Shown: piece by piece, positions 42,601 to 54,919 of the stretch
Numbering within the stretch: the stretch's first letter is position 1
Layout: each line of letters starts with the position of its first letter
Source: Deltaproteobacteria bacterium
Lineage (GTDB): Bacteria; Myxococcota_A; UBA9160; SMWR01
Direction: 5' to 3'
Length of the DNA: 64,000 nt
Assembly: GCA_031405455.1 (NCBI GenBank)
Contig: JANNIY010000151.1
Span: 440 to 64,439 of the forward strand
Program-made: the position numbers and the translations under genes
The notes under the pieces: model-generated
Seen by the model: the letters and a program-made list of their open reading frames with translations, nothing else
The model's database searches: none
Told to the model about the DNA's origin: nothing

Positions 42601-42858
42601 GTGCATGCGCTGCTCGGCGCCTGGGACGCCGGCAGTTTCGGGCCGCGGCTGGTGAAGCCAGATTCGGAGGAAGCGGCGGACGTGTGCGAGCGCTGCGAGG
42701 TTGCGCAGGCGTGCCTGCAAGGTGACACTGGATCGCGTCAGCGCCTGGCCGCCTGGCTCGCGGAAACGGGCGAAGGGCTTTCCGCTGGCGAGCAGGCGCT
42801 GCGTGCGTCCCTGAGCCTGGGTGCCAGCGCGGCGAAGCCCGCCGCGGAGGCCGAATGA
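39694..42858 (+). CDS. addB: AddB-type helicase-nuclease subunit (PD-(D/E)XK nuclease with Fe-S staple; inactive helicase-like N-terminus)
   Basis: A 1054-aa ORF with a GTG start and GGGGGAGG upstream. The C-terminus has DFK (LTDFKTGRA) and the Cys pattern C...C-x2-C-x5-C (LARCGW...CERCEVAQAC). No intact Walker A is present. It has an ATGA overlap with addA. Confidence 0.85.
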   Translation: MVETVEESADLAVAVMTARGPRAVEAQLLERVAWHVAEARGDARRLALPIRIIVPSRSLADHVGERLVTHAGHSLAGVLVQTLHALALELLERVGEPLPADDAFFPVLVRRLAAGEPLLRDALAGLVDGYAGIEAAVADLLDAGFDAGSAEAVIDALAAAPGDTAALARALAVARVAQRCLAALADVGVGHRALLLGAARDALLRDPDAALPARAVLIHGFADATGLRAELIEALARYRRATVFMDEPPDPARPGEPDAGRRFTERLRARLLGVAAERVITAGTAPASEIAWVEAVNPDAEVREVATRVRTALASGMPPERIGVVARELSGYRSALRLHFRRLGIPFSGDSPGGVGPLARRAGALDALLREGVLCRADRWLAASAAPAKAQAVNEVRVALRRGGLLRLRDLANHEPERGELRDSVTAARATRAALERMADTRDGRESFAALEALLQAGLGWQPESEELAPLWREIESLRAALPPEFPLAIDDLALLLRRRFARVLAEPLGGGGGGVQVLDATQARARTFDALFLLGLSRDVFPRSVREESLLPDFVRESLRAILPDVPLKLRGHDEERFLFAQLVAASPRVTLCWPIATDDGRPRSRSSFVERLRWGAAPFEPVRALSILALPDASTPKAEIPVRCLSEHALVAALQASPRRLAQVLPLALREIPLRVASADPKALAEARLQVLREVESGGSPVPRLGPYFGFVGAARTSTDPRARPLYITSLEKLARCGWQTFVERLLAIKPQPDSQRMLPGSDARLLGTTVHGVLAALVPDACDPTVGVTLSWPDRAGLEALARAQAARVLADEKVFLPGLARVLALQALPLLERARELDALAGDQLRVTGAESLRSATIVDSQGRARELHFRVDRSERLDGVERLTDFKTGRALSTAVKAETRARRFRSAVASGTALQPVAYALAAGDEGSGRLLYLDPDLAPDGEAANFIARRADPELASAFETAVHALLGAWDAGSFGPRLVKPDSEEAADVCERCEVAQACLQGDTGSRQRLAAWLAETGEGLSAGEQALRASLSLGASAAKPAAEAE

Positions 42859-45800
42859 GCACGGCGCTCACGAGTGAAGCGCTTCGCGAGCGTGACGCCG
42901 GCGTCTGGGAACGCGCGTTGCGTGTCTTCGATCGACCGTTCGTGGTGGAGGCGGGCGCGGGCACCGGCAAGACGACGCTGCTCGTGGCCCGCTGCCTCGC
43001 CTGGACGCTCGGTGAGGGCTGGGATCTCGCAGTCCGGCGGTTGCCCGAAGCCGCCGATGACCGCATCGCAGCAGAAGTGCTCTCGCGCGTTGCCGCGCTC
43101 ACCTTCACCGAGGCCGCGGCATCCGAAATGGCGGAGCGGGTGGGGGTCGCCCTCGCGGCGGTCGTCGATGGCCGCTGGCCCGATGGGATCGACGCCGGAG
43201 CGCTGCCGGAATCCGGAGCGCTCCGATCCGCACGCGCCAGCGCGCTGCTCGGCGCGCTCGACCGGCTGCTCGTGCGGACGATCCACGCCTTTTGTCGCCG
43301 GCTGCTCGCGCAGTACGCGATCGAAGCCGGGCTGCACCCGGATTTCGAGGTCGACGCGGATGAACGCGGCTGCCAGACGGCTGCGCATGCCGCAGTCGAG
43401 GCCGCGGTGGCCGTGGGCTACGGCGATCCGGGCGATCCGGATCTGCTCGCGCTCGCGCTCGACGGCTTCGGGCCGCCCGAACTCGAGGAGGCGCTCGCGG
43501 CGCTGCTCGCCTCGGGGCTCGCTCCGGCTGCGCTCACGGCCGATCCGTTCGGCGCGAAGGCGATCCGCGCCTGGCTCGCCGAGCTGGACGCTTTATTGCG
43601 TCGATTCGATGCTGCCGCGGGCGAACGCCTCGCGACGACCGCAAAGAGATCCGCGCGGACGCATGAGACGCTCGCCGCGCTCGCGGCGACGGCGCGGCTC
43701 GTGGCAGCTGGAGCGGAGGACGTCGAAGCGCTCGAGAGCCTCGCGGCGGATCTGCGCGACGTGTGGAACCCGAAGGTCTTCGCTCGGCTGGCTCAGTGGA
43801 GCCGCGAAGACTATGGAGCCTCGGAGCAAACCGCGCTCGGCGAAGCCGGTGCGAGCGCCGCGCAGGCCGCGAGTGCGCTTCGCGGCGCGCTCCAGCATGC
43901 GACGCAGCTTCAGCCCAGGCGTCTCGATCACGCGCGTCGCGTGCTCGGGCCCCTGCTGGCGACCGCCCGCGAGCGCATGCGGGTGCGCGGCGAAGTCGGC
44001 TACATGGAACTCCTGCGCGGTGCGCGCGATTTGCTGCGCGATCACCCGGACGTGCGCACGCGCGTGCGCGGCGGGCTCGATCAGCTGCTGATCGACGAGT
44101 TCCAGGATACGGACCGCGTGCAGTGCGAGATCCTGCGCTGGCTCGCGCTCGCTGGACCCGGCCCCGAACGTCCGGGCCTCTTCCTGGTCGGCGATCCGAA
44201 GCAATCGATCTATGGCTGGCGCGAGGCCGATCTCGAGGCCTACGAGGAGTTCGTGCGCGAGGCGCTCGGCGCGGGCAATCCACCCGAGCGCCTCAGCGTG
44301 AATCGACGCTCGACGCCCCCCATCCTGGCCGAGGTCGCGCGCGTGATTGCGCCGGTGATGGTCGAGCGCGGCGGTCTGCAACCCGCATTCCAACCGCTGG
44401 TCGCGAGCGAGAAGCGCGAGGCGGAGCCCGGCTATGCGAGCGAGGGGCGAGCCGCCGTCGAGCATTGGATCTCCTGGCTCTGGGACGAGGAGGGCGGCAC
44501 GGCCCGGAGTCCGCTGGCGCGCGATGCCGCGCGTCTCGAGGCGCGGGCGGTGGCGCAGGATCTCGCCAGGCTCCGGAGCAGCGAGTCGCTCGCGTGGCGC
44601 GATGCGGGTGTGCTCGTGCGTTCGCGCGGCGATCTCGAGGTCTATCTGCAAGCGCTGCGCGCGGCGGGCGTCCCCTATGCCGTCGAGCGTGATCGCAGCT
44701 ACTACCGACGTCGTGAGGTGATCGATGCGAGCGCGCTCGTGAGCTGCGTGCTCGATCCGGCCGATACCCTCGCCCTGCTCACCTGGTTGCGGTCGCCTTC
44801 GGTCGGCGTGCCCGACGCGGCGCTGCTGCCGCTCTGGGCGTGCCAGTTCCCCGCGCTGGTGTCGGCACTCACGAGCGAGGAGCCGGAGCCGCTCGCCGCA
44901 CTCGACCGTGCGATCGACGCGGCCCTGGCGCTGCTGCCGAGCGACGTCCCGGGGCTCGATCGTATCGCTGGCTGGGAGCGCGCCTTGCGTTTCGCGCTCG
45001 CGGGGCTGGCCGCGTTGCGCGCGAGTTTCACGGTCGACGCGGCCGATGAATTCGTCGAGAAGCTCCGCTCGCTCACGCTCATCGAGGTGACCGAGTCGGC
45101 GCGCTATCTGGGCGCCTACCGACTCGCGAATCTCGAGCGTTTCTTCCGGGATCTGCGCGCGGATCTCGAAGCCGAGGACGTCGACGTGCAGGCGCTGCTG
45201 CGCCGCTTGCGCAGCGACGTCGTCAGCGCGCGCGCCGCCGAGGATGCGCGCCCGCGCGAAGCCGCCGAGGACGCCGTGCGCGTGATGACGATCCACCAGG
45301 CGAAGGGGCTCGAGTTCCGACACTGCTATCTGGTGCAGCTCCACAAGTCCCCGCCCGGTTCGGTCGCGCAGCCTGCTTTCGAGGCGCGGGAGATCGACGG
45401 CGTGCTCGAGTATCGCGTCTGCGGCGCCGCGACCCTCGGCTTTGCACGTCTGGCAGCCTACCGAGATCGCGTCGGCGCGGCGGAACGGGTGCGCTCGCTC
45501 TACGTCGCCATGACGCGCGCGCGCGATCGTCTGGTCTTGCTGGGAAATTGGGGGGATGAGGGGTCCGAGCTCACGCCCCCGGAGCAGGCCACCACCTACA
45601 CGCAGCTCGTGGCGGCGCGAAGCGGCGAGCGTCCCGAACTCGCGGCCGCGATGCAGCGCGCGCGGCGCGAGGGGCGCGACGGCGAGCGGGGCGGCGATGG
45701 GGTGCGCTGGGCATTCCCGGCGCTGCGGAGTGAACCGGAAGCCGCAGCGTCCGGCCCGCGAGCGGCTGCGTCTCTTCCGAGTGTCGCTGTGCTCGAGGCG

Positions 45801-46499
45801 GAAGCGGCGCGCCTGGCGGAATGGCGCGCGGCGGCTTCTCGGCGGATGGCGCGTCCGTTTCGCGCGGCGGCTTCGGCGGATTCACACGCGGGCGCGCGCG
45901 AAGAGGACGCGGAGCGCCGCTATGCGGGTTCCGACGCTTCCAGATCCGGGAACCCGGGCGGTCTCGACGCCGAAATCGCGAAGGCGGCCGGGACGGCGGT
46001 GCACCGAGTGCTCGAGTCGTTGCGGTTCGGCGACGACTGGCGCGAGGATCTGGCCGCACACTTCACGCGGCTCCCCGCGCTGCTCGAGCGTCTCGCTCCG
46101 CCGCCGGCGCGTCCGGCCGCGCTCGAGCGCGCGAGGTCGCTGCTCGAGCGCCTCGCGCAGGGGCCGCTGGCCGCGCGGTTCGCCGGTTTGTGCGACAGCG
46201 TGATCGCGCGCGAGCTTCCGGTCTTGCTTCCGGCGGAACCCGCCGGGGAGGGCCCGGTTGGATTCGTCGCCGGCGCCATCGATCTGCTGTATCGGGATGC
46301 TGCGACGAGTGAACTCGTGATCGTCGACTACAAGACCGACCGCGTCGAGGCTGACGCCAGACTCGCGGAGTACGCACGGCGTTATGCCGGTCAGGCGGCG
46401 CACTACCGGCGCGCGATCCAGGAAGCGCTCGCGCTCGCATCTCCACCGCGCTTCGAACTGTGGTTCTTGCACGCAGGCGCGGTCGTGCGCATCGCTTGA
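42855..46499 (+). CDS. addA: AddA-type UvrD/Rep-family helicase-nuclease subunit
   Basis: A 1214-aa ORF with Walker A (AGAGTGKTT), DEFQDT, SF1 motifs and a C-terminal RecB-type nuclease (IDLLYRD...VIVDYKTD). Confidence 0.9.
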   Translation: MSTALTSEALRERDAGVWERALRVFDRPFVVEAGAGTGKTTLLVARCLAWTLGEGWDLAVRRLPEAADDRIAAEVLSRVAALTFTEAAASEMAERVGVALAAVVDGRWPDGIDAGALPESGALRSARASALLGALDRLLVRTIHAFCRRLLAQYAIEAGLHPDFEVDADERGCQTAAHAAVEAAVAVGYGDPGDPDLLALALDGFGPPELEEALAALLASGLAPAALTADPFGAKAIRAWLAELDALLRRFDAAAGERLATTAKRSARTHETLAALAATARLVAAGAEDVEALESLAADLRDVWNPKVFARLAQWSREDYGASEQTALGEAGASAAQAASALRGALQHATQLQPRRLDHARRVLGPLLATARERMRVRGEVGYMELLRGARDLLRDHPDVRTRVRGGLDQLLIDEFQDTDRVQCEILRWLALAGPGPERPGLFLVGDPKQSIYGWREADLEAYEEFVREALGAGNPPERLSVNRRSTPPILAEVARVIAPVMVERGGLQPAFQPLVASEKREAEPGYASEGRAAVEHWISWLWDEEGGTARSPLARDAARLEARAVAQDLARLRSSESLAWRDAGVLVRSRGDLEVYLQALRAAGVPYAVERDRSYYRRREVIDASALVSCVLDPADTLALLTWLRSPSVGVPDAALLPLWACQFPALVSALTSEEPEPLAALDRAIDAALALLPSDVPGLDRIAGWERALRFALAGLAALRASFTVDAADEFVEKLRSLTLIEVTESARYLGAYRLANLERFFRDLRADLEAEDVDVQALLRRLRSDVVSARAAEDARPREAAEDAVRVMTIHQAKGLEFRHCYLVQLHKSPPGSVAQPAFEAREIDGVLEYRVCGAATLGFARLAAYRDRVGAAERVRSLYVAMTRARDRLVLLGNWGDEGSELTPPEQATTYTQLVAARSGERPELAAAMQRARREGRDGERGGDGVRWAFPALRSEPEAAASGPRAAASLPSVAVLEAEAARLAEWRAAASRRMARPFRAAASADSHAGAREEDAERRYAGSDASRSGNPGGLDAEIAKAAGTAVHRVLESLRFGDDWREDLAAHFTRLPALLERLAPPPARPAALERARSLLERLAQGPLAARFAGLCDSVIARELPVLLPAEPAGEGPVGFVAGAIDLLYRDAATSELVIVDYKTDRVEADARLAEYARRYAGQAAHYRRAIQEALALASPPRFELWFLHAGAVVRIA

Positions 46500-46533
46500 G
46501 GTGCACGCGGATTCGAAATCGAAAGCGAAAGCG

Positions 46534-47112
46534 CTAGCGCGAAGTCCGGAGCGCGTACTCGCGCAGCGCGCGCGCGTCGGTGAACGTGAGTTCGACGTGC
46601 CCGAGCCGTACGTTGTCGCCGGGCTTGAGACGTCGCGACGGTCCCGCGCCGCTGGTCAGCACCGATTCAGCGTTCACGGTGGTGCCGTTGGTCGAGCCGG
46701 CATCCTGAAGCAGGAGCGCGCCGTCCGGGCCCGGCTTGGCGAAGGCGTGAAAACGCGAAACGCTCATGTCCGGAATCACGACGTCCTGACGCGGCTCGCG
46801 GCCGAGCGTGATCATGTTCCCCTTGGCAGCGTCCTTGGGCCGCATCGGAAACACCACCACCGCGAGGTTCGCCGTGCGCCCGGCCGGCTCGTCATCGTCC
46901 CCATCGAGCAGCAGCTTGGTGCTGTTCGTGCTCTCGGGACCGTCGAGGCGCTTGGCCGTGAACAGCAGAAAGCCGTTGCCGTGCTTTTCCGCGAACGCGT
47001 CGGGCGAGAGCCCGCGCGCATCGCCAGCGAGGGTTTCGAGCGGAATCGCCGTTCCCAACGAGGCTTGCGCCCCACTCTTGCGTATCTCGCTGCCCGGGTG
47101 TCGCGTTTCCAT
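46534..47112 (-). CDS. FHA-domain protein
   Basis: A 192-aa ORF with a C-terminal FHA core (ITLGREPRQDVVIPDMSVSRFHA...DAGSTNGTTVN). Confidence 0.85.
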   Translation of the reverse strand: METRHPGSEIRKSGAQASLGTAIPLETLAGDARGLSPDAFAEKHGNGFLLFTAKRLDGPESTNSTKLLLDGDDDEPAGRTANLAVVVFPMRPKDAAKGNMITLGREPRQDVVIPDMSVSRFHAFAKPGPDGALLLQDAGSTNGTTVNAESVLTSGAGPSRRLKPGDNVRLGHVELTFTDARALREYALRTSR

Positions 47113-47213
47113 CTACGCTTTGAGTCGGCGAGCGGAGCCCGAGCTTGAGTTTGGCCGATAGCTTCAGGGGTCCGAAGCGATTCGAAGCGTCGTCGATGGG
47201 GGACGGGAGTCCA

Positions 47214-48059
47214 ATGCGGTCGATTGCCCTGGCCTTCCTGCTGGTTTTGGGGGTCGCGAGCGCCGCGTCGGCCGCCCCGCTCGCCATCACCAACCCGGGG
47301 TTCGAGGACCTCTACTTCGGGAGCAATCTCCCCGCCCAGTACGCGGGCAACGTGCCGCCGGGCGCGTTTCCGTTCGGCCCGCCGCCAGCGGGTTGGACCG
47401 CCTACTACGAGGGCGGGAGCCCCTTCGCCGGCCTCTCGATCGGCGTGATCAATCCAGGCACCCAGGCCGATTACGGCCCGGATCCCGCGGCGTTCCCGGC
47501 GGGTGCTCCCGAGGCTGAAAACGCGGTGCTCCTCTACATGGACGGCGACGCCGGCGGCAACGAGTTCGGCGTCGTGCAACAGCTCGCAGCCACGCTCGCG
47601 GCGAACACCCGCTACACGCTCTCGGTGGAAGTGGGCAACATCGCGAGCGGCTCGGCGCTGGTTCAGCCTTTCCTCGGCTTCGGGTTCTTCAATCTCGCTG
47701 GCTTTCCGGGTTACCGCCTCCAGCTTCTCGCCGCTGGGCAGGTGATCGCCGAGGACACGGGATCGATCCTGCCGGGCGAGGGTGTGTTCCAGCGGGCCAG
47801 CCTCCAGCTGACGACGGGTGATGCTCCGCCCCAGCTCGGACAGGCTCTCGGGATTCGGCTCGTCAATCGCAACGAAGCCGACGTGCCCGGCGTGCGGGGG
47901 CTGGAGGTCGACTTCGACGACGTCCAGCTGGATGCCGCGCCGGCTTTGCCGGCCGTGCCGCTGTCTGCGAGCACGGCCTGGCTGCTGGCGTTGACGCTGC
48001 TCGCAAGCGGATTCTGGATCGCACGCGCGCGACGCGTCAGCGGGTTGCTGCGGAGCTAG
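47214..48059 (+). CDS. Secreted protein with a PEP-CTERM/IPTL-CTERM-like C-terminal sorting signal
   Basis: From ORF 47145..48059(+). ATG 47214 has GGGAG upstream, followed by the signal peptide MRSIALAFLLVLGVASAASA. The C-terminus is AVPLSAS, a TM segment (TAWLLALTLLASGFWIA) and RARR. Confidence 0.75.
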   Translation: MRSIALAFLLVLGVASAASAAPLAITNPGFEDLYFGSNLPAQYAGNVPPGAFPFGPPPAGWTAYYEGGSPFAGLSIGVINPGTQADYGPDPAAFPAGAPEAENAVLLYMDGDAGGNEFGVVQQLAATLAANTRYTLSVEVGNIASGSALVQPFLGFGFFNLAGFPGYRLQLLAAGQVIAEDTGSILPGEGVFQRASLQLTTGDAPPQLGQALGIRLVNRNEADVPGVRGLEVDFDDVQLDAAPALPAVPLSASTAWLLALTLLASGFWIARARRVSGLLRS

Positions 48060-48068
48060 GCGCGCGGC

Positions 48069-48575
48069 TCAACTCCGCGTGGGCGCCGTCCGCTCCTCGC
48101 GTGGGCGCCGGCTCGCGATCAGCAGGGTGCAGACGCCCGCCACGACGGCCAGATCGGCGACGTTGAAGATGCCGGTGCGGAAGCTGCCGAGGCCGATGCT
48201 GACGAAATCGGTGACGGCACCGTCGTTGAGCACACGGTCGAGCCAATTGCCGATGCCGCCGCCGGCGACGAGGGCGAGCGCGAAGCGCTGGGCGCGCGAG
48301 GTTCGCTCCGACGTTGCGAAGCTTAGACACACAAATGCAATCAAGAGCGGGACCACTCCGATCAGGAGCACCTGTCGCACGGGCTCCGGAAGGCTCGCGC
48401 CGAGGCTGAGAAAGGCTCCCTGATTGAAGGCGAGTTGTAACTGGATCGTGTCGCCTGCCAGCGCGAGCCCGCTCGTGCCGGTCAGCAGGGCCTCGGCGGC
48501 CCGCTTGGAGACGTGATCGCAACCCACGCAGGTGGCGAGCACGAGCAGGAACGCAAGGCCGTGGCGTCGATTCAC
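48069..48575 (-). CDS. lspA: Lipoprotein signal peptidase (signal peptidase II)
   Basis: From ORF 48069..48626(-). LspA blocks are present: FNQGAFLSLG, GGGIGNWLDR, VTDFV and FNVADL. The start at GTG 48575 is tentative. Confidence 0.85.
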   Translation of the reverse strand: MNRRHGLAFLLVLATCVGCDHVSKRAAEALLTGTSGLALAGDTIQLQLAFNQGAFLSLGASLPEPVRQVLLIGVVPLLIAFVCLSFATSERTSRAQRFALALVAGGGIGNWLDRVLNDGAVTDFVSIGLGSFRTGIFNVADLAVVAGVCTLLIASRRPREERTAPTRS

Positions 48576-48627: not shown

Positions 48628-49278
48628 TCACGTCACGCCACCCGGCTTTCCGGCCGCGCGCGGCGCGCCATCGAAAAACTCGACGACCCCCGTCTCGAGG
48701 GAGTATTCCGCCCCGACGACGAGCAGGCCATCGTCACGGATCAGCTGTTCGAGCAGCTGCGAGCCGTGCCGCAGGTGGTTCGCCGAGGCGCGCACGTTGG
48801 CCCGCACCGCCTGGCGCGTCAGGGCGTCCGGATCGTGGCGGACGTCGGTCGCGAGCAGGCCTTCGACGGAGGGTCGCACGCGGTCGATGATCGCCCGGAT
48901 GTTCGCGCTTTGGCTCTCCGTCGACCGCTGAAGTTCTTCGAGCGTGGCCAGGATTGCCCCGCACTGGGAGTGGCCGAGGACGATCACCAGCCGCGTGCCG
49001 AAGCGCGCCGCGGCGAATTCGACACTACCGACGAGAGAGGGGGCCACGATGTTTCCGGCGACGCGAATCACGAACAGATCCCCGAGGCCCTGATCGAACA
49101 CGATCTCCGCGGGGACGCGCGAATCGGAGCAACCGAGAATGATCGCGAAGGGCTCCTGGCCCGACGCCAGCTCGGCGCGACGGTTGTGCGTCAGCAACGA
49201 ATCGGCGCCGCGCACGTTCGCGGCGAACCGGATGTTTCCCTCGCGCAACCGTTCGAAGGCTTCACTGGCTGAAAGCAT
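48628..49278 (-). CDS. Beta-class carbonic anhydrase
   Basis: From ORF 48628..49317(-). The zinc ligands are in CSDSR and GHSQCGA. The start is at ATG 49278 (MLSASEAFERL). Confidence 0.9.
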   Translation of the reverse strand: MLSASEAFERLREGNIRFAANVRGADSLLTHNRRAELASGQEPFAIILGCSDSRVPAEIVFDQGLGDLFVIRVAGNIVAPSLVGSVEFAAARFGTRLVIVLGHSQCGAILATLEELQRSTESQSANIRAIIDRVRPSVEGLLATDVRHDPDALTRQAVRANVRASANHLRHGSQLLEQLIRDDGLLVVGAEYSLETGVVEFFDGAPRAAGKPGGVT

Positions 49279-49345: not shown

Positions 49346-52300
49346 CTACGCCGTCGTGATGCGCCGTCGCCCGCGCCAGAGTTCGCCGCGGCTGAACTGT
49401 GCCCAGCCCCAGCGCAGCCAGCGCAGCAGCGCCATGGCGAGCCACAATGCCCAGGCGAGCATCAACCCGCGGTACGCCAGCAGCGGAACGGAGAGCACCG
49501 ACGGCCGCGGCAGCGTCGCGTCCGCGCGGTCCTGGTACCAACGCAGCTCGTTCGCGAACGAGCCATTGCCGGCGACCTGCATCTCCGGTTGTCCGAGCAG
49601 TCCCTGCTGGATCGAATAGAGAAGCACGCTGAGGGCAGCGAACGTGAGAAGTGCGAGCGCGAGCTGCAGCGCGTCGAACCAGCGGCCGCGTACGCCCGCG
49701 CCGTTTTCGCCTCGCCAGGCGAGCGCGAGCAGCCAGACCGCGACGATCGCGGCTGCCTCGAACGGCACCTGCGTGAGGCCGAGCCCGAGCAGGAACCAGT
49801 CATGCATGCGCAATGGCGTGTAGCGCGTACGGCCGATCCCCACGGCCACCGCGGCCAACAGCGCGAGCAGTGGCCAGAACAAGACGGCCGGGCCCAGGCG
49901 CGGCCCGCTCGCCCACAACACCCAGCGGTCCGGCGACAGGGAAAGCGCCGTTTCCGCGTTCACGCTCGGCGCGCGCAGATCGACCTCCGGTGCTTCGAAG
50001 CGCGTCGTGATCCCGCGCGGCTCGCGCCATGCGAGCGAGAGGGTGCGCGTCCCCGGCGCGAGCGGCAGGGTCACCTCGCGCCCCTCCTGGCGGATCGGTT
50101 GTTCGGCGCCGTCGATCGTCACCCGCTCGAGCACGGCGCCCTCCGGTAACGCGATGGCGTGTTGACCGCCCAGCGAGCTGCGCAGCCGCAACTCGAGTGA
50201 AGCATCGGTGGCGCGCAGTCCCGGCGAGATCTCGATGCGGCTGCCGTCGAACGTGAGCGTCGGGCCCTCGACGCCCTCGGGCCGCGTCGCGCGTACGCTC
50301 ACGCGCTCGCCCGGCCAGGGCCGCCACACGCGCAGGCGCGTGCCGCTCGCGTCCTGGTAAATCACCGGGATGCCCTCGGCCTCGATGTGCCAGATGGGGC
50401 TCGCGTCGAGGATCCAGGTCTCGATCCAGTTCGTGGCGTCGGGCGCGCGCAGCTCGATGCTCGCTGCGATCGCGAGCGCCGAGATCCACGTCACCTGCGA
50501 GACGCCGGGGCTGAGGCTCACGAACGCGGCGCCGTTCTCGGAGCGCACGCCAGCCGTCGTCACCGATTCGCCCGCGAGCAGCGGCACCTCGAGCGCCAGC
50601 GTCGCGTCGGAAGGCGTGAGCCGCGTGACGGTCGTCTCGATCTGCCAGCTGATGCCGAGGCGCAGCGTGCGCGTGACGCTCGCAAATGGCGGCAGCGAGG
50701 AAGCCTCGAGAGTCGGGTGTGTCGCGGTGTTCACGTCGCGGATACGTGCGAGTCGGAGATTATCCTCCGGCACACCGTCTTCGCCGATGCCCTGCACGAT
50801 CCAGCCGCGGCTAATCGCTTCCGCGCGGTGGGGTTTGAGCGGCAGGGGTAATTCGATCGTGTCGCGCTCGGGGAGCGCGCCCGAAATCACCACCTGATGC
50901 GCACCGGGTTCGAGCTGGAGCCACAGGACGCCGTCCTGGGCGAGGCGCAGCCCCGCAGCGGCTTCGCCATCGACGATCACCTGCTCGGGCACCCAGTCGC
51001 GCGCGCTGCCGGGGAGCGGGACGGCCGTCGCAACCGCCGCGTCGAGTTCGAAGCGCAGCACGAGCCTGGCGGGCTCGACCTCGAGGCGCAGCCGCGGGCT
51101 CGCAGCGCAATCCGGGAGGCATGCCGGTGATTCGAGCAGCCGCACGCGCAATCGCTCGAGCAGTTCCTCGCTCGGAAAATCCGCGCGCGCAGGCGGAGCC
51201 GGAGCCGCGAGCAGCACGCCCGCGAGCGCAGCGGCCGCGCTCACCGCCTTCTGCCACGGGAAGACCGCTCGCGGGAGCGCGGGCCGTAGAACGCGCAGGA
51301 GCAGCGCCGCGAGCAGCGCCACGCGCAACACGGCGAGCAGCCCGTTGAGCCACGGCGGTGCCAGCAGGAGCAGCAGGGTCTGGCCGCGTTCGACGGGTCC
51401 GCGCCAGCGCAGCGAGACGGATCTCCAGCTCCAGGTCGGAAGCCCCGGGCCGGTGGTGATGCGCGCCTTGGGATCGGGCGCCCAGCTCGAGGCGTAGCTC
51501 GATATGGCGTTCGATCGCTTCCGGGCTTCGTGCTCTTTCGCGAGATACCCGAGCGCGCGAAGTGGCTGCGATGCCGGCTGTTGAAACTCGCGCGCTTCCG
51601 CCTGGTCCATCGCCGGTGCGACTTCGCCCGCCAGCGACCCTTCCTCCGTGTGCCCGGCGATCGCGGGGCGGGGCGCCTCGAATCCAGGATTTTCGAGCGC
51701 AGGGAAGAAGCCGCTGCGCAGTTGCAGCAGTGCGAAGGGGAGGGCGAGCAATACGAGCACGGCGAGCGCGAGCTGCCATAGCGTGCGCACCGCTGCGGCG
51801 AGCGACCCGCGCACGACCGCACGGCGGAGCGCTTCGCCCGAAAGCACGGCGATCCATACCCAGCGCGGCGCTCCGGGTTCGGTGTAGGTGAGCGCGAGGC
51901 CCGCGAGCGCGAGTGCTGCCCAGCCGGGGCCGAAAAGTCTCAGGAACGCCATCGCCACCACGAGCACGACGAAGAGATCGAGCAGCGACCAGCGCGTCAC
52001 CCAGGTGTAGGACGCGACGTCGACGCCCGAGGCGTAGAGCAGCCGCCAGCCCGGCGGGAGCTGAAGTTCTGCCGAGACGCTCTGGAAGTCCGCGTCCCAG
52101 CCGACGGCGGGGACGCGCGAGCCCGCGTCCGGAATCCGGCTGTCGGCCGAGACCGAGATCTCACCGCGCGGGATCTCGACGCCCGTGCCCTCCTCGCCGG
52201 GGAGGCGCGTGATGAACTGGTCGCGGCCGTTCACCGCGACACGGCCGAGCTCGGTGCCGGGCGCCATCGCGAGGCGGTCGCTGCGGACGACGGCTCCGCG

Positions 52301-53446
52301 GATGCGATCCGATACGGTGTAACCCTGGCCATCGAAATCGAGCCACCAGCTGCGCACGAGCTCGAGCCGGTCCGGCGCGGGGTCGGCGTCCCCTCGGCGC
52401 TTGGTCACGAAGCGCAGCGCCGAGCCGGGCTCGAGCGCGAAGGCCGGCAGCGCGCGCCAGTCGTCGGGGAGCTCCGTCTGCTGTGGATCGATGGCAGCCG
52501 CGCCCTCGACCGAGACCTGGCGCAGGCTCGGCCGCGCATCGAAGACCCACTCCTCGCGCTCGTCCCACGGCCCGTCGGGCGCCGCCAGCAAGAGCGAATC
52601 GACGGGACCCGGCAGCCGCGCCTCGATCTCGACGAAGTACGTGCCGGGTCGCACCTGCACGCGCAGTTTTCCGTCCGGGTCGATCCGCGCCGGGAGCGGC
52701 GCGGACAGGGACATCGCGACGGCGCCTGCGGGCAGGGCGCGCCCGAGCACGACCTCGCGCGCCGGGCCCGAAATCTCGAGCCGGATTCGCGTCGTGATGC
52801 GCAAGGGAATCTCATCGACGATGCGGCGGAACACGCTGATTTCGAGATGGCTCTCGGCGCCCACGTTTCCGGCGCTCGCCGTGCGCAGCCACACGCGCCC
52901 CTGCGCATCGCGCCTCGGAAACGCAATCGGCTCCCCTGCGAGCGAAACGGCGAGCAGGCCGGTCTCGGCGGGAATCTGGAGCAACTCGGGCGGCGCGTCC
53001 CAGGCGAACTCGCCGCGCACGTCGCGAAGGCCAGGCAGCAGGCGAACGCTCGGGCGCCCGGCGTATTCGATCACGGGGGCTGGCCGGCCGTCCACCTGGA
53101 CGGCTTGCGGCCAGTGCTTCGCATCGCCCGGCAGCGGCACCCAGGCGTTGGCGTGCACGCGCCAGCGCTGCACGAAGCTGCCCTGGCGTGCACCGAGCGC
53201 GAGTTCGAGGCGGCCCGGCCAGACACATTCGCGGCCGCCCTGCCCGCCGTGCAAGAACGGACAACGTTCGGATTCGTTTCCGTACAGGACCCAGTCGACC
53301 CACGGGCGAAGCGGTTCGGGGACGCGCTCGGGCGTGAGCGGCTCGGCGCCCGCGACCGCGGCGAGGCATGCGCAGAGCAGGCCGGCCACGCGGGCGACTC
53401 GCCACTGAAACACGCCGGACATGCGGTGACGCGCGTTTTCCAGCAT
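49346..53446 (-). CDS. Very large (1366 aa) multi-pass membrane protein of unknown function with an internal tandem duplication
   Basis: A single uninterrupted ORF. AGGAGGAG lies 4 nt before ATG 53446. It has an N-terminal signal peptide, two large non-hydrophobic domains and three hydrophobic clusters. I do not recognise the family. Confidence 0.85.
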   Translation of the reverse strand: MLENARHRMSGVFQWRVARVAGLLCACLAAVAGAEPLTPERVPEPLRPWVDWVLYGNESERCPFLHGGQGGRECVWPGRLELALGARQGSFVQRWRVHANAWVPLPGDAKHWPQAVQVDGRPAPVIEYAGRPSVRLLPGLRDVRGEFAWDAPPELLQIPAETGLLAVSLAGEPIAFPRRDAQGRVWLRTASAGNVGAESHLEISVFRRIVDEIPLRITTRIRLEISGPAREVVLGRALPAGAVAMSLSAPLPARIDPDGKLRVQVRPGTYFVEIEARLPGPVDSLLLAAPDGPWDEREEWVFDARPSLRQVSVEGAAAIDPQQTELPDDWRALPAFALEPGSALRFVTKRRGDADPAPDRLELVRSWWLDFDGQGYTVSDRIRGAVVRSDRLAMAPGTELGRVAVNGRDQFITRLPGEEGTGVEIPRGEISVSADSRIPDAGSRVPAVGWDADFQSVSAELQLPPGWRLLYASGVDVASYTWVTRWSLLDLFVVLVVAMAFLRLFGPGWAALALAGLALTYTEPGAPRWVWIAVLSGEALRRAVVRGSLAAAVRTLWQLALAVLVLLALPFALLQLRSGFFPALENPGFEAPRPAIAGHTEEGSLAGEVAPAMDQAEAREFQQPASQPLRALGYLAKEHEARKRSNAISSYASSWAPDPKARITTGPGLPTWSWRSVSLRWRGPVERGQTLLLLLAPPWLNGLLAVLRVALLAALLLRVLRPALPRAVFPWQKAVSAAAALAGVLLAAPAPPARADFPSEELLERLRVRLLESPACLPDCAASPRLRLEVEPARLVLRFELDAAVATAVPLPGSARDWVPEQVIVDGEAAAGLRLAQDGVLWLQLEPGAHQVVISGALPERDTIELPLPLKPHRAEAISRGWIVQGIGEDGVPEDNLRLARIRDVNTATHPTLEASSLPPFASVTRTLRLGISWQIETTVTRLTPSDATLALEVPLLAGESVTTAGVRSENGAAFVSLSPGVSQVTWISALAIAASIELRAPDATNWIETWILDASPIWHIEAEGIPVIYQDASGTRLRVWRPWPGERVSVRATRPEGVEGPTLTFDGSRIEISPGLRATDASLELRLRSSLGGQHAIALPEGAVLERVTIDGAEQPIRQEGREVTLPLAPGTRTLSLAWREPRGITTRFEAPEVDLRAPSVNAETALSLSPDRWVLWASGPRLGPAVLFWPLLALLAAVAVGIGRTRYTPLRMHDWFLLGLGLTQVPFEAAAIVAVWLLALAWRGENGAGVRGRWFDALQLALALLTFAALSVLLYSIQQGLLGQPEMQVAGNGSFANELRWYQDRADATLPRPSVLSVPLLAYRGLMLAWALWLAMALLRWLRWGWAQFSRGELWRGRRRITTA

Positions 53447-53488
53447 CCTGCTCCTCCTGTCCGTGCCTTCCTCTTCGGTGGGAGAGAC

Positions 53489-54919
53489 ATGCTACAGAAG
53501 AACTACCCCTACTATCTCGGCAACCGTCCGGTGTTGGCGGATTCGACGCTCGCCGTCACGGACAAGTTCACTGGTGAAATCGCCACGCGGGTGGCGATGG
53601 CCGATGCCGCCGCGATCGATCGGGCGATCGAGCTCGCGGTGCAGGCTGCGAAGCCGATGCGCGAACTCGCCGCCTACGAGCGGAAACAGGTGCTCCAGCA
53701 CTGCGTTACCCGTTTCTCAGAACGCGCCGAAGAGCTCGCGATGGCGCTGTGCATCGAGGCGGGCAAGCCCATCCAGGATGCGCGCGGCGAGGTCGGGCGG
53801 CTCGTCGACACCTTCCGTATCGCGGCCGAAGAATCGGTGCGCATCACGGGCGAAGTACTTCCGCTCGACATCAACCCGCGAGCCCGTGGGTACACGGGCA
53901 TGTGGAAGCGCGTGCCGATCGGGCCCTGCTCCTTCATTTCGCCCTTCAATTTTCCCTTGAATCTCGCTGCGCACAAGATCGCGCCGGCGATCGCCGCCGG
54001 CTGTTCGTTCGTCTTGAAGCCCGCGAGCCTGACACCGGTCGGCGCAATCCTCATCGGCGAGGTGCTCGCCGAGACCGATCTCCCGATCGGCGCCTTCTCG
54101 ATTCTGCCCGTGCCCCGAGACCAGGCCGATCGCTTTGCGACGGATGAGCGGCTGAAGCTGCTGTCCTTCACCGGGTCGCCGGGGGTTGGCTGGGCGCTCA
54201 AGGCCAAGGCCGGCCGCAAGAAGGTGGTGCTCGAGCTCGGCGGCAACGCCGCCGTGATCGTCGATTGCGATGCCGACCTCGCCGACGCCACCCGCCGGAT
54301 CATCTTCGGCGCCTTCTATCAATCCGGACAGAGCTGCATCGGGGTCCAGCGCATCCTGGCGCATGAAGAGATCTACGAAGAGTTGCGCGGTCGACTCGTG
54401 GCGGCGACCGCAGCGCTGCGCATGGGCGACCCGAAGGATCCGGAGAACTTCATCGGGCCCATGATCTCCGAGACGGAGGCGAAGCGCCTCGAGGCCTGGA
54501 TCGCCGCGGCGCTGCATGCGGGCGGCAAGCTGCTCGTCGGCGGCAAGCGCAAGGGAGCGCTGCACGAGGCGACGCTGCTCGAGGATGTGCCCGCCGATCA
54601 GGACGTCGTGTGTCAGGAGGCCTTCGGGCCGGTCGCCGTGCTCTCGCGCTTCCGCGATTTCGATGCGGCGCTCGCGCAGGTGAACGAGAGCGTCTACGGG
54701 CTGCAGGCTGGCATTTTTACCCGCGATCTCTACAAGGCACAGCGCGCCTGGAATGAGCTCGAGGTGGGCGGCGTCGTGATCGGCGACGTGCCCTCCTGGC
54801 GCGTCGATCACATGCCCTACGGAGGCGTCAAGGAGAGCGGTCTCGGCCGCGAGGGTGTGCGCTTCGCGATCGAAGACATGACGGAGATCCGTCTCATGAT
54901 CGTGCGCACGCCGCAATGA
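53489..54919 (+). CDS. NAD(P)-dependent aldehyde dehydrogenase family protein
   Basis: This is the C-terminal 476 aa of ORF 52847..54919(+), starting MLQKNYPYYL with GGGAG upstream. It has the ALDH Glu block (VVLELGGNA) and Cys block (FYQSGQSCIGVQR). Confidence 0.92.
   Translation: MLQKNYPYYLGNRPVLADSTLAVTDKFTGEIATRVAMADAAAIDRAIELAVQAAKPMRELAAYERKQVLQHCVTRFSERAEELAMALCIEAGKPIQDARGEVGRLVDTFRIAAEESVRITGEVLPLDINPRARGYTGMWKRVPIGPCSFISPFNFPLNLAAHKIAPAIAAGCSFVLKPASLTPVGAILIGEVLAETDLPIGAFSILPVPRDQADRFATDERLKLLSFTGSPGVGWALKAKAGRKKVVLELGGNAAVIVDCDADLADATRRIIFGAFYQSGQSCIGVQRILAHEEIYEELRGRLVAATAALRMGDPKDPENFIGPMISETEAKRLEAWIAAALHAGGKLLVGGKRKGALHEATLLEDVPADQDVVCQEAFGPVAVLSRFRDFDAALAQVNESVYGLQAGIFTRDLYKAQRAWNELEVGGVVIGDVPSWRVDHMPYGGVKESGLGREGVRFAIEDMTEIRLMIVRTPQ

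Follow-up and report, generated by a model that had tools for sequence, protein, structure and literature searches.

LptF/LptG and SecD/SecF are paired homologous membrane units with periplasmic domains. They are pseudo-symmetric and sometimes encoded by one fused gene. FbcH of Bradyrhizobium is a fused cytochrome b-c1 precursor, which is split at an internal signal peptide into two subunits of one complex. For Ost1 (ribophorin I, RPN1; PF04597), subunit 1 of the eukaryotic oligosaccharyltransferase (OST), a role in holding or guiding substrates beside the translocon has been proposed. Helix-pair motifs in a two-fold repeat are common in channels. Sequence searches have found OST1 in eukaryotes and, outside them, only in TACK and Asgard archaea (PMC11417166). 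The gene product analysed here is a large inner-membrane protein with two copies of one unit. It represents a widespread bacterial family that has not been described before.

Gene and protein architecture

The gene lies on the minus strand of the window, the whole stretch of 64,000 nucleotides that was analysed. As noted in a preliminary description of this DNA, it is a single ORF that starts with ATG behind a ribosome-binding site and has no internal stop (Table 1). Every sequence element quoted in that description was found in the protein; the coordinates given for its two motifs span only the PLPG...VDG core of each. Hydrophobic clusters at residues 482-577, 698-726, 731-751, 1182-1286 and 1322-1344 had the same positions in the protein and in the family-averaged hydropathy profile.

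Table 1. Features of the gene and the encoded protein (positions in the window; residues of the protein)
Feature	Residues	Position	Strand	Basis
Complete CDS, 1366 aa + stop codon	1-1366	49346..53446	-	Single ORF without internal stop
Ribosome-binding site AGGAGGAG, 4 nt 5' of ATG		53451..53458	-	Read from sequence
N-terminal Sec-type signal peptide, predicted cut A-G-A/E-P	1-34	53345..53446	-	Basic n-region, hydrophobic core
Module 1 N-terminal cap, Cys pair C62/C74	35-74	53225..53344	-	Cys invariance
Module 1 all-beta arm, Ost1/ribophorin I-like	75-480	52007..53224	-	AlphaFold, Foldseek
Module 1 membrane block	481-582	51701..52006	-	Hydropathy, modelled helices, alignment with module 2 block (E = 1e-17)
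Low-complexity variable linker	583-657	51476..51700	-	Identity, pLDDT
D-P...Q-T-G-P-G-L-P-x-W-x-W segment and module 1 TM-D	658-726	51269..51475	-	Conservation, hydropathy
Internal signal peptide, predicted cut A-R-A/D-F-P	727-755	51182..51268	-	Basic n-region, Ala/Leu core, Pro-rich c-region
Module 2 N-terminal cap, Cys pair C776/C780	756-780	51107..51181	-	P758, C776, C780 invariant
Module 2 all-beta arm, Ost1/ribophorin I-like	781-1181	49904..51106	-	AlphaFold, Foldseek
Module 2 membrane block	1182-1284	49595..49903	-	Hydropathy, modelled helices
M-Q-I-x-G-N-G-S beta-hairpin, module 2 TM-D, Arg/Trp-rich tail	1285-1366	49349..49594	-	Model, conservation

Duplication

The halves are homologous. 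BLASTP of one half against the other yielded 26.6% identity over 414 columns (E = 8e-5), and hhalign of the family profiles of the two halves yielded E = 4.9e-8 over 431 columns. With 32 diverse members, the hhalign probability was 98.9% with E = 1e-17 over 483 columns. Both methods place the repeat far beyond chance. The alignment with E = 1e-17 extends through the second TM helix. The duplicated unit exceeds the soluble domain: the signal peptide belongs to it, as does the greater part of the membrane block. The membrane blocks of modules 1 and 2 compared alone had no significant similarity (E = 0.38). A joint alignment of eight copies of each module was collinear, and both cysteines, L and G of the PLPG motif and W-P are among the residues invariant in both modules.

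The modules are 23-27% identical. A survey of single-module versus fused forms found exactly two modules in all 270 family proteins fetched, so the duplication is older than the radiation of the family into different phyla. These sequence comparisons support the earlier proposal of an ancient tandem duplication of an envelope protein.

Family distribution and gene neighbourhood

A sequence search yielded more than 2000 matches, and the best 120 were all full length. The family comprises at least 3,072 representative clusters at 50% identity. Full-length homologues of 1330-1600 aa are encoded in at least 529 species genomes of several phyla, with a range that includes Myxococcota, Acidobacteriota, Elusimicrobiota, Methylococcales and others. 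Conservation is high, with 41-53% identity between phyla. The preliminary description had not assigned the protein to a family: the 1366-aa protein had no match in Pfam and NCBIfam at E<=1, and searches of Pfam, NCBIfam and PDB sequences were empty for the protein and for 32 diverse relatives. Every source annotates it as "hypothetical protein".

Genes for a beta-carbonic anhydrase and LspA are located downstream on the minus strand with gaps of 67 and 52 nt, given the starts ATG 49278 and GTG 48575. The three same-strand genes with short gaps and without a terminator-like site in between resemble an operon, and a second, independently made assembly of this organism has the identical arrangement. 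That the gene serves CO2/bicarbonate handling or lipoprotein processing, as the preliminary description had hinted, is extremely improbable. In relatives with 73-75% identity, synteny is retained upstream, but the downstream side is occupied by a transposase or Coq4/NMO. Clustering of the neighbours at 83 loci revealed nothing conserved apart from the gene itself, and neither carbonic anhydrase nor LspA recurred at any of the 83 other loci. The signal peptides have A-x-A sites and lack a conserved lipobox; most relatives have neither Cys25 nor Cys27. The arrangement is private to the source genome.

Periplasmic arms

Each arm follows a small cap with two cysteines. C62 and C74 are invariant among 50 relatives and among 32 diverse members, and they align with C776 and C780 of module 2 (PACLPDC). 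Both Cys pairs had been recognised before and probably form disulfides. The AlphaFold models had an overall pLDDT of 82.3 and 83.7. Both arms were modelled mostly with pLDDT 85-96, arm 1 with strands only.

The arms had Ost1/ribophorin I as the best fold match in the PDB. For arm 1, the best three Foldseek matches were yeast Ost1 chains (6ezn_A, 8agb_E and 7oci_A; E 2e-5 to 1e-4). For arm 2, the best eight were RPN1/Ost1 chains (E 2.3e-9 to 2.9e-7, prob 1.00, 370-526 columns), with confirmed chain identity. The TM-scores to Ost1/RPN1 were low (0.14-0.26), and the arm 2 matches also include integrin and pilin. The modelled likeness is one of fold level only, and tandem beta-sandwich arrays attract such matches.

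Each module could be a true but very distant OST1/ribophorin I homologue; the protein would then act on nascent exported proteins next to the Sec translocon or a bacterial oligosaccharyltransferase. Besides the ranking of the fold matches, the identical order of signal peptide, beta-sandwich domains and TM helix is consistent with this, as is a permissive profile alignment in which module 2 is collinear with nearly all of Ost1 (347 columns). Such a descent is nevertheless quite improbable. The profile-profile comparison with 26 diverse ribophorins was not significant (Prob 0.04-0.7%, best E = 0.088), and homology is thus unproven. Pfam Ribophorin_I matched none of the family members even at E<=10. 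The protein has no counterpart of the helical bundle that RPN1 and Asgard OST1 carry in the cytosol, STT3/PglB is not among the conserved neighbours, and the distribution of OST1 by sequence (PMC11417166) does not include bacteria.

Part of one arm repeatedly matched the fold of the N-terminal beta domain found in M1 aminopeptidases and in leukotriene A4 hydrolase (~100-180 columns, rmsd 5-7 A). Together with the numerous invariant Asp, Glu and Arg residues of the arms, this would suit a periplasmic peptidase or glycosidase with catalytic arms. The matched domain is, however, the non-catalytic one. A scan for enzyme signatures found no HExxH or other known catalytic motif and no cysteine outside the signal peptide and the two pairs, and Pfam and NCBIfam indicated no enzyme family. 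Conservation is lower in the arms than at the membrane interface. An enzyme is very improbable.

Signal peptides

The N-terminal signal peptide ends with LLCACLAAVAGA before EP. Among 50 relatives, alanine is present at -3 in 37 and at -1 in 43. The identity of 0.24 is low, as is typical of signal peptides, and residues 32-34 have a pLDDT <50.

The second signal-like segment, AVSAAAALAGVLLAAPAPPARA before DF, comprises residues 733-755 at nt 51182-51250, as first described. Behind a basic n-region and a short hydrophobic core, it carries an A-x-A site followed by D/E that is kept in the family: the 50 relatives have Ala at -3 (39/50), Ala at -1 (49/50), D/E at +1 (49/50) and Pro at +3 (45/50), and 32 diverse relatives have Ala at -3 (29/32) and A/G at -1 (28/32). 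With an identity of 0.26, the segment resembles the N-terminal signal peptide and not the true TM blocks (0.38-0.49). In the AlphaFold models, both predicted cut sites are non-helical with pLDDT <50 and directly follow a helix; in the internal segment this applies to residues 748-757. In these features the segment acts like a genuine signal peptide.

Alternatively, the internal segment may be a permanent transmembrane helix (a reverse signal-anchor) in one two-armed chain of ~150 kDa. Its h- and c-regions (median 22, range 17-32) suffice to span the membrane and would suit an uncleaved helix equally well, and the fusion of the halves in 270 of 270 members indicates that fusion is useful, which is less obvious for a protein that is always cut. 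This reading is possible but on the unlikely side: the residues kept around the site across phyla, -1 A/G, -3 A and the following D/E and Pro, are needless in a plain TM helix. Neither the low identity nor the non-helical Pro/Gly-rich c-region fits one. The conserved internal A-x-A site suggests cleavage into two subunits, and because A-x-A sites are conserved at both signal peptides, signal peptidase I is proposed to cut both.

Membrane blocks and topology

Both membrane blocks consist of TM-A, a short helix pair with a polar tip and TM-C. The tip is the conserved E523-P-G-A-P in module 1 (modelled helices 488-505, 507-520, 528-543 and 548-580) and T-Q1226-V-P in module 2 (1190-1205, 1214-1224, 1229-1251 and 1255-1284). 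The short helix pairs may be re-entrant, as judged only from hydrophobic lengths and charge counts. The linker behind the first block is the least conserved segment (mean pairwise identity 0.15), and its residues 583-600 have a pLDDT <50. The following segment holds the 12-mer with the highest conservation in the protein (663-674, with invariant T665, G666, G668 and W672) and, after the hydrophobic span 698-726, ends in a basic stretch. The C-terminal part was modelled as strands 1300-1308 and 1316-1321, helix 1322-1351 and a basic tail; residues 1285-1366 are the most conserved block (identity 0.49). The other top conserved 12-mers are 1326-1337, 461-472, 1180-1191 and 1282-1293. The best conservation is located at the membrane-periplasm interface and not at the arm tips.

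The tail and short loops have a median of ~10 Lys+Arg inside versus 2 outside. By the positive-inside rule, this favours a location of both arms outside the cytoplasm. Together with the A-x-A signal segments and the invariant Cys pairs, it speaks for the two periplasmic domains on TM bundles that had been proposed.

A channel or transporter would place the pore in the membrane blocks with the E523-P and Q1226-V-P tips, and the arms would be receptor, funnel or gate. The strongest conservation in and beside the membrane, the polar or charged residues kept inside hydrophobic spans (D490, R503, Q575, R708, Q1226, Q1261 and R1326), the frequency of two-fold helix-pair repeats in channels and the high identity between phyla would also fit this. 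It is unlikely: Pfam and NCBIfam revealed no similarity to a transporter family, the PDB fold matches include no transporter, there are only ~6 full TM helices, a conserved ATPase or other energy-coupling partner is absent, and the re-entrant loops are putative.

Working model and comparison with known systems

The tentative best explanation is a stand-alone two-unit inner-membrane protein, which forms a cleaved pair and holds substrates without catalysis. One chain with two homologous units is synthesised. Each unit would consist of a Sec-type signal peptide, a Cys-pair cap, a periplasmic arm of ~400 aa with an Ost1/ribophorin I-like beta-sandwich fold and a membrane block. The block would start with a TM helix, a polar-tipped short helix pair and a second TM helix, and continue with a conserved periplasmic beta-hairpin and a last TM helix whose end is a basic stretch in the cytoplasm. 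The N-terminal signal peptide would export arm 1, and the internal one would restart export for arm 2 after the first membrane block. Cuts by signal peptidase I at both sites would yield homologous subunits of ~77 and 67 kDa, which may stay together as a pseudo-symmetric pair. On the periplasmic side of the inner membrane, the pair may hold or guide a substrate in extended form; candidates are a polypeptide that has just been exported or a polymer linked to the membrane.

A non-catalytic job is most likely because of the conservation of the interface, the scant cytoplasmic mass and the absence of a catalytic motif and of a conserved partner. The best guess is a binding platform in the periplasm, at the surface of the membrane. 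The functional analogy to Ost1 is weak, since the role of Ost1 is poorly defined. For the "envelope machine" of the preliminary description, the fold resemblance to Ost1/ribophorin I is the sole structural lead; a conserved partner gene is absent, and the term remains a hedge.

Ost1/RPN1 shares with the bacterial protein a signal peptide, a run of non-cytoplasmic beta-sandwiches, a transmembrane helix and the absence of a catalytic motif. It has one helix, whereas the bacterial protein has two tandem units with at least three membrane elements each, no significant sequence or profile similarity to Ost1/RPN1 and no conserved OST partner gene. From M1 aminopeptidases and leukotriene A4 hydrolase, the bacterial protein differs by its membrane anchor and by the missing thermolysin-like catalytic domain. 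LptF/LptG and SecD/SecF depend on an ABC ATPase or SecYEG, and no such partner is linked to the present gene. Neither sequence nor fold searches matched these families, and the TM counts differ; common to all are two homologous membrane units, each with a periplasmic domain. FbcH is unrelated in sequence and function, its halves are not paralogues, and cleavage in the present protein is a prediction. Like FbcH, it would be a membrane polyprotein of bacteria whose internal Sec-type signal peptide starts export anew and is probably removed.

Distribution and identity of the family

The 1366-aa protein belongs to a large and widespread family. A protein search returned more than 2000 matches; the best 120 of these have 1303-1624 aa and at least 49% identity, are called "hypothetical protein" wherever they have a name and lack a Pfam domain save for one apparent fusion. 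A profile search of 1.84 billion representatives yielded 3,072 clusters at E<=1e-3 and 1,661 at E<=1e-30. Scanning one genome per species confirmed a homologue in at least 529 genomes. Members occur in Myxococcota, Acidobacteriota (Thermoanaerobaculia, Polarisedimenticolia), Elusimicrobiota, Desulfuromonadales and Spirochaetales, and many are gammaproteobacterial (Methylobacter luteus, Methylomicrobium, Thiomargarita, Zobellella maritima). The megaplasmid of Azoarcus sp. KH32C codes for a 1364-aa homologue (WP_015452075.1), again labelled "hypothetical protein". Cultured hosts include M. luteus, Z. maritima, Azoarcus sp. KH32C and myxobacteria.

Two records deserve a comment. One homologue (P0013) is recorded with 1624 aa and a Coq4 domain. 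Since a close relative has Coq4 as a gene of its own directly 3' of the homologue (locus L085, 10302-10931), P0013 is probably a read-through or a mis-called fusion. A full-length homologue with 40% identity is located on a 5.5-kb contig of very low coverage binned as Promethearchaeota (Asgard; JAIWHJ010000146.1), most likely a mis-binned bacterial sequence. If real, an archaeal origin would be notable in view of the Ost1-like fold described below.

The preliminary description had placed the protein in no known family, and the searches agree. Scans with Pfam (2025 copy) and NCBIfam (June 2026) gave no match for the 1366-aa protein, Pfam at E<=10 gave no meaningful match for 32 diverse members, and the family profile returned only noise from the PDB sequences (E>1). 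BiPBP_C appeared weakly in four of the 32 (best E=0.006) and was taken as a generic beta-sandwich echo. DUF2207/YciQ proteins share the layout of signal peptide, beta domain and C-terminal transmembrane (TM) helices; Pfam DUF2207 matched none of the 32 members, and hhalign of a module profile with Escherichia coli YciQ (Prob 0.12, E=0.47) did not support kinship. A literature search found no paper on the two-module family and nothing usable on bacterial ribophorin-like proteins.

Internal duplication

The protein had been described as two paralogous modules, and this repeat proved to be significant, collinear and conserved in the family: all 270 family proteins fetched have exactly two modules. 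A mixed-module profile search of the 1.84 billion representatives revealed no single-module relative among the best 150 matches listed, which were all two-module proteins. BLASTP of one half against the other aligned residues 103-474 with 809-1181 (26.6% identity, E=8e-5). Profile comparison by hhalign was stronger: module profiles from the 50-member family alignment gave Prob 94.8% and E=4.9e-8 over 431 columns, and those from 32 more diverse members Prob 98.9% and E=1e-17 over 483 columns. The latter alignment spans about residues 69-580 and 775-1283 and covers the periplasmic arm together with the first two TM helices and the short helix pair between them. The repeat is thus larger than the soluble domain. 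Compared alone, the membrane blocks were not significantly similar (E=0.38); their similarity was significant only inside the whole-module alignment. Beyond the last shared helix, the likeness is one of pattern only: Q-T-G-P-G-L-P-x-W-x-W plus a TM helix in module 1, M-Q-I-x-G-N-G-S...W plus a TM helix in module 2.

Aligned together, eight sequences of module 1 and eight of module 2 were collinear with 23-27% identity. Both cysteines, the L and G of a PLPG motif and a W-P are among the positions invariant in both modules. Two acidic loops of module 1, E-K-R-R-G-D-A-D-P-A-P-D and W-L-D-F-D-G-G-G-Y, are near-invariant. In module 2, the first loop is missing altogether (7-residue gap), and the position of the second is not conserved. 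The loops may be a site for binding a cation or ligand; this would hint at a functional divergence of the two arms.

Membrane topology and conservation

AlphaFold2 models were calculated separately for residues 1-600 and 655-1366 with 74 homologues each (mean pLDDT 82.3 and 83.7). Both arms are modelled as all-beta, with strands at 75-462 and 781-1180. Helices follow at 488-505, 507-520, 528-543 and 548-580 in module 1 and at 1190-1205, 1214-1224, 1229-1251 and 1255-1284 in module 2, which continues with a beta-hairpin (1300-1321) and a helix (1322-1351). We infer a periplasmic position of both arms and the hairpins: an invariant Cys pair opens each arm, each module has its own export signal, basic residues precede the internal one, the C-terminal tail is rich in Arg and Trp, and the charge counts agree. 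Apart from the two pairs, the protein has cysteines only in its signal peptide, which contains two of them.

The middle hydrophobic element of each membrane block is a short helix pair with a conserved polar tip (E523-P-G-A-P in module 1, T-Q1226-V-P in module 2). Each helix is too short for a lone membrane crossing. In module 2, a cytoplasm-side re-entrant hairpin places about 10 Lys+Arg inside and 2 outside, versus 4 inside and 8 outside for four crossings. The pair is therefore predicted, from these charges, to form a cytoplasm-side re-entrant hairpin.

The most conserved 12-mers are membrane-proximal (663-674, 1326-1337, 461-472, 1180-1191 and 1282-1293). Conserved polar residues in or near the membrane are D490, R503, E523, Q575, R708, R1206, Q1226, R1245, Q1261, N1294, D1306 and R1326.

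Signal peptides and processing

Module 2 starts with a signal-peptide-like internal segment. In 50 relatives, this junction consists of a basic stretch, 13-18 uncharged residues, a Pro/Gly-rich stretch and the motif A-x-A|D/E-hydrophobic-P. At the predicted internal cut, position -3 is Ala in 39 of the 50 (a small residue in 45) and position -1 is Ala in 49 and Gly in one; Asp/Glu occupies +1 in 49 and Pro +3 in 45. The N-terminal signal peptides of 50 relatives have Ala at -3 in 37 and at -1 in 43. Among 32 diverse members, the internal site has Ala at -3 in 29 and Ala/Gly at -1 in 28. N-terminal and internal segments both show the features of a Sec/signal peptidase I signal peptide, with a basic n-region (median of 2 Lys/Arg) before a hydrophobic h-region, and with small residues at -3 and -1.

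Mean pairwise identity is low for both signals (0.24 N-terminal, 0.26 internal). The TM blocks reach 0.38-0.49 and the arms 0.40-0.42, and the linker has 0.15. Both predicted cut sites are non-helical with a pLDDT below 50. The A-x-A pattern, the low identity and the non-helical cut sites argue for a working internal export signal, which is probably removed by signal peptidase I. Such a cut would yield two subunits. The main alternative for this step is a protein that stays an uncleaved single chain. Bradyrhizobium provides a bacterial precedent for an internal signal peptide, the cytochrome b-c1 precursor FbcH; a literature search on FbcH-type internal signal peptides found nothing usable. 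If processed, the family would be among very few bacterial membrane polyproteins cut by a signal peptidase.

The N-terminal signal peptide contains a lipobox-like L-C-A-C (L-I-A-C in close relatives), and an lspA gene is nearby. The hydrophobic stretch before it is very short. Cys25 and Cys27 are present in the closest relatives only and absent from most of the family, where A-x-A|E-P is the conserved motif; a conserved lipobox [LVI][ASTVI][GAS]C at the signal-peptide end is absent. A lipoprotein reading of the N-terminus was rejected because these cysteines are not conserved.

Gene and neighbourhood

All sequence elements quoted in the preliminary description were found at their positions, and the gaps to the downstream carbonic anhydrase and LspA genes are 67 and 52 nt provided that the starts listed in the table are correct. 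Upstream, an aldehyde dehydrogenase gene is divergent, so the 1366-aa gene is the first in its transcription direction. Given the short distance between the two start codons, both promoters must sit within neighbouring coding sequence; a scan of this gap showed no sigma-70-like site.

Features of the two-module protein gene and its surroundings (window positions)
Feature	Position	Strand	Remarks
1054-aa PD-(D/E)XK nuclease-domain protein and adjacent 1214-aa UvrD-like helicase	39694-46499	+	
254-aa ORF	46384-47148	+	no Pfam match
192-aa FHA/Yop-YscD_cpl protein	46534-47112	-	gene call of an independent assembly
304-aa HpiC1-like (Stig cyclase) protein	47145-48059	+	E=1.5e-45
LspA, signal peptidase II	48069-48575	-	E=7.5e-25; GTG start at 48575; 3' of carbonic anhydrase gene
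beta-Carbonic anhydrase	48628-49278	-	Pro_CA, E=2e-38; ATG start at 49278; directly downstream of 1366-aa gene
Two-module protein	49346-53446	-	one ORF, 1366 codons, ATG start
Second acidic loop, module 1	52319-52351		residues 366-376
First acidic loop, module 1	52367-52402		residues 349-360
Lipobox-like L-C-A-C	53366-53374		residues 25-27
Gap between divergent start codons	53447-53488		42 bp
AGGAGGAG	53451-53458		4 bases 5' of ATG of two-module protein
Aldehyde dehydrogenase	53489-54919	+	divergent

An operon-level role with carbonic anhydrase and LspA would fit the short gaps and the lack of a terminator-like site between the three genes. Upstream, relatives with 73-75% identity have the same genes (aldehyde dehydrogenase, tRNA synthetase, ABC and FtsX); downstream, a transposase or Coq4/NMO stands in place of carbonic anhydrase/LspA. 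The order recurs in a second assembly of the same organism. This arrangement is thus private to the source organism; the suggested link to carbonic anhydrase and LspA was dropped as a family feature, and an operon-level role is unlikely.

Contig look-ups (3+3) and all-against-all ORF clustering of 83 loci were used for the wider neighbourhood. Three distant loci shared no neighbours, and clustering revealed no conserved partner gene: only the gene itself and its antisense shadow ORFs recurred in most loci. The next-largest cluster comprised generic receiver and kinase domains in 14 of the 83 loci. Neighbours beyond the gene itself were lineage-local only, with no conserved neighbour of any kind, including an STT3-type oligosaccharyltransferase.

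In Methylococcales (L035, L045, L048, L061, L065, L067 and L071), a gene for a SAM-dependent methyltransferase of about 240 aa is located 3' on the same strand, in some loci after a gap of 19-42 nt, and an FtsX/MacB-type permease is nearby; this synteny is lineage-specific only. In three myxococcotal loci (L019, L027 and L047), a divergent hybrid histidine kinase gene adjoins the homologue. On the Azoarcus sp. KH32C plasmid (L088), the homologue shares 4 nt with an overlapping 3' gene for an isoaspartyl peptidase/asparaginase and faces a gene for an FKBP-type isomerase. Another FKBP gene lies 2.4 kb from the homologue in L001.

Other genes in the window were also of interest. The nuclease-domain protein and helicase look like an AddB/AddA-type helicase-nuclease. 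The 254-aa ORF is probably a high-GC shadow ORF, overlapping a gene called on the opposite strand. HpiC1-like Stig cyclases are known from cyanobacterial hapalindole biosynthesis, so the strong match was unexpected in a high-GC, probably myxobacterial genome.

Function and comparison with OST1/ribophorin I

Foldseek searches of the PDB with the modelled arms revealed a familiar fold. The best eight matches of arm 2 were RPN1/Ost1 chains (E 2.3e-9 to 2.9e-7, prob 1.00, 370-526 columns); integrin leg domains came next, along with the N-terminal, non-catalytic domain of M1 aminopeptidases/LTA4H. The best three matches of arm 1 were yeast Ost1 chains (E 2e-5 to 1e-4). The top chains were verified as OST subunit 1. 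TM-scores to Ost1/RPN1 are low (0.14-0.26), as expected for flexible multi-domain chains, and warn that the likeness of the models is perhaps only a match of general architecture. An M1 aminopeptidase/LTA4 hydrolase identity was rejected: only the non-catalytic N-terminal domain of these enzymes resembles part of an arm, HExxH is absent from the 1366-aa protein and Peptidase_M1 did not match.

At the sequence level, homology to ribophorin I was not supported. Pfam Ribophorin_I (PF04597) matched neither the 1366-aa protein at E<=1 nor any of the 32 diverse members at E<=10. Alignment by hhalign with 10 ribophorin I sequences gave Prob 0.04, and with 26 diverse fungal and vertebrate sequences a best E=0.088 and Prob 0.7, which is not significant; the comparison of the two modules, which served as positive control, reached E=1e-17. 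Absence from Pfam, NCBIfam and PDB and negative results in all sequence tests against the nearest structural relative classify the family as an undescribed kind of protein with a familiar fold rather than a variant of a known one. Proteins of 1366 aa with 40-50% identity across several phyla and hundreds of species, yet without a covering model, a solved relative or a name, represent a sizeable blind spot in the knowledge of the bacterial envelope. Even without a function, a domain definition would group thousands of "hypothetical proteins".

The architecture of the protein is well supported. It has hardly any cytoplasmic mass and neither a catalytic signature nor a conserved partner; together with the two Ost1-like arms and a conservation peak at the membrane-periplasm interface, this points to a putative non-catalytic role on the periplasmic side of the inner membrane. 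The protein may serve there to hold or guide an extended substrate. The main functional alternative is a channel or transporter formed by the two membrane blocks: it would accommodate the polar residues conserved in and near the membrane. An enzymatic role is unlikely in the light of the missing catalytic signature.

A more far-reaching reading sees in the family the bacterial counterpart of OST1/ribophorin I: a polyprotein that signal peptidase I would cut at the conserved internal signal peptide, and whose two paralogous subunits would act on newly exported chains at the periplasmic face of the inner membrane. We consider this improbable. OST1 is reported in eukaryotes and, outside them, only in TACK and Asgard archaea (PMC11417166). 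RPN1 and Asgard OST1 have a cytosolic C-terminal ribosome-binding helical bundle (PMC11417166), whereas in each module of the bacterial protein only a short basic stretch comes after the last TM helix. Like Ost1/ribophorin I, the modules have a row of beta-sandwich domains outside the cytoplasm, with a TM helix after it. If this fold reflects common descent, the family bears on the origin of the accessory subunits of the eukaryotic translocon and OST.
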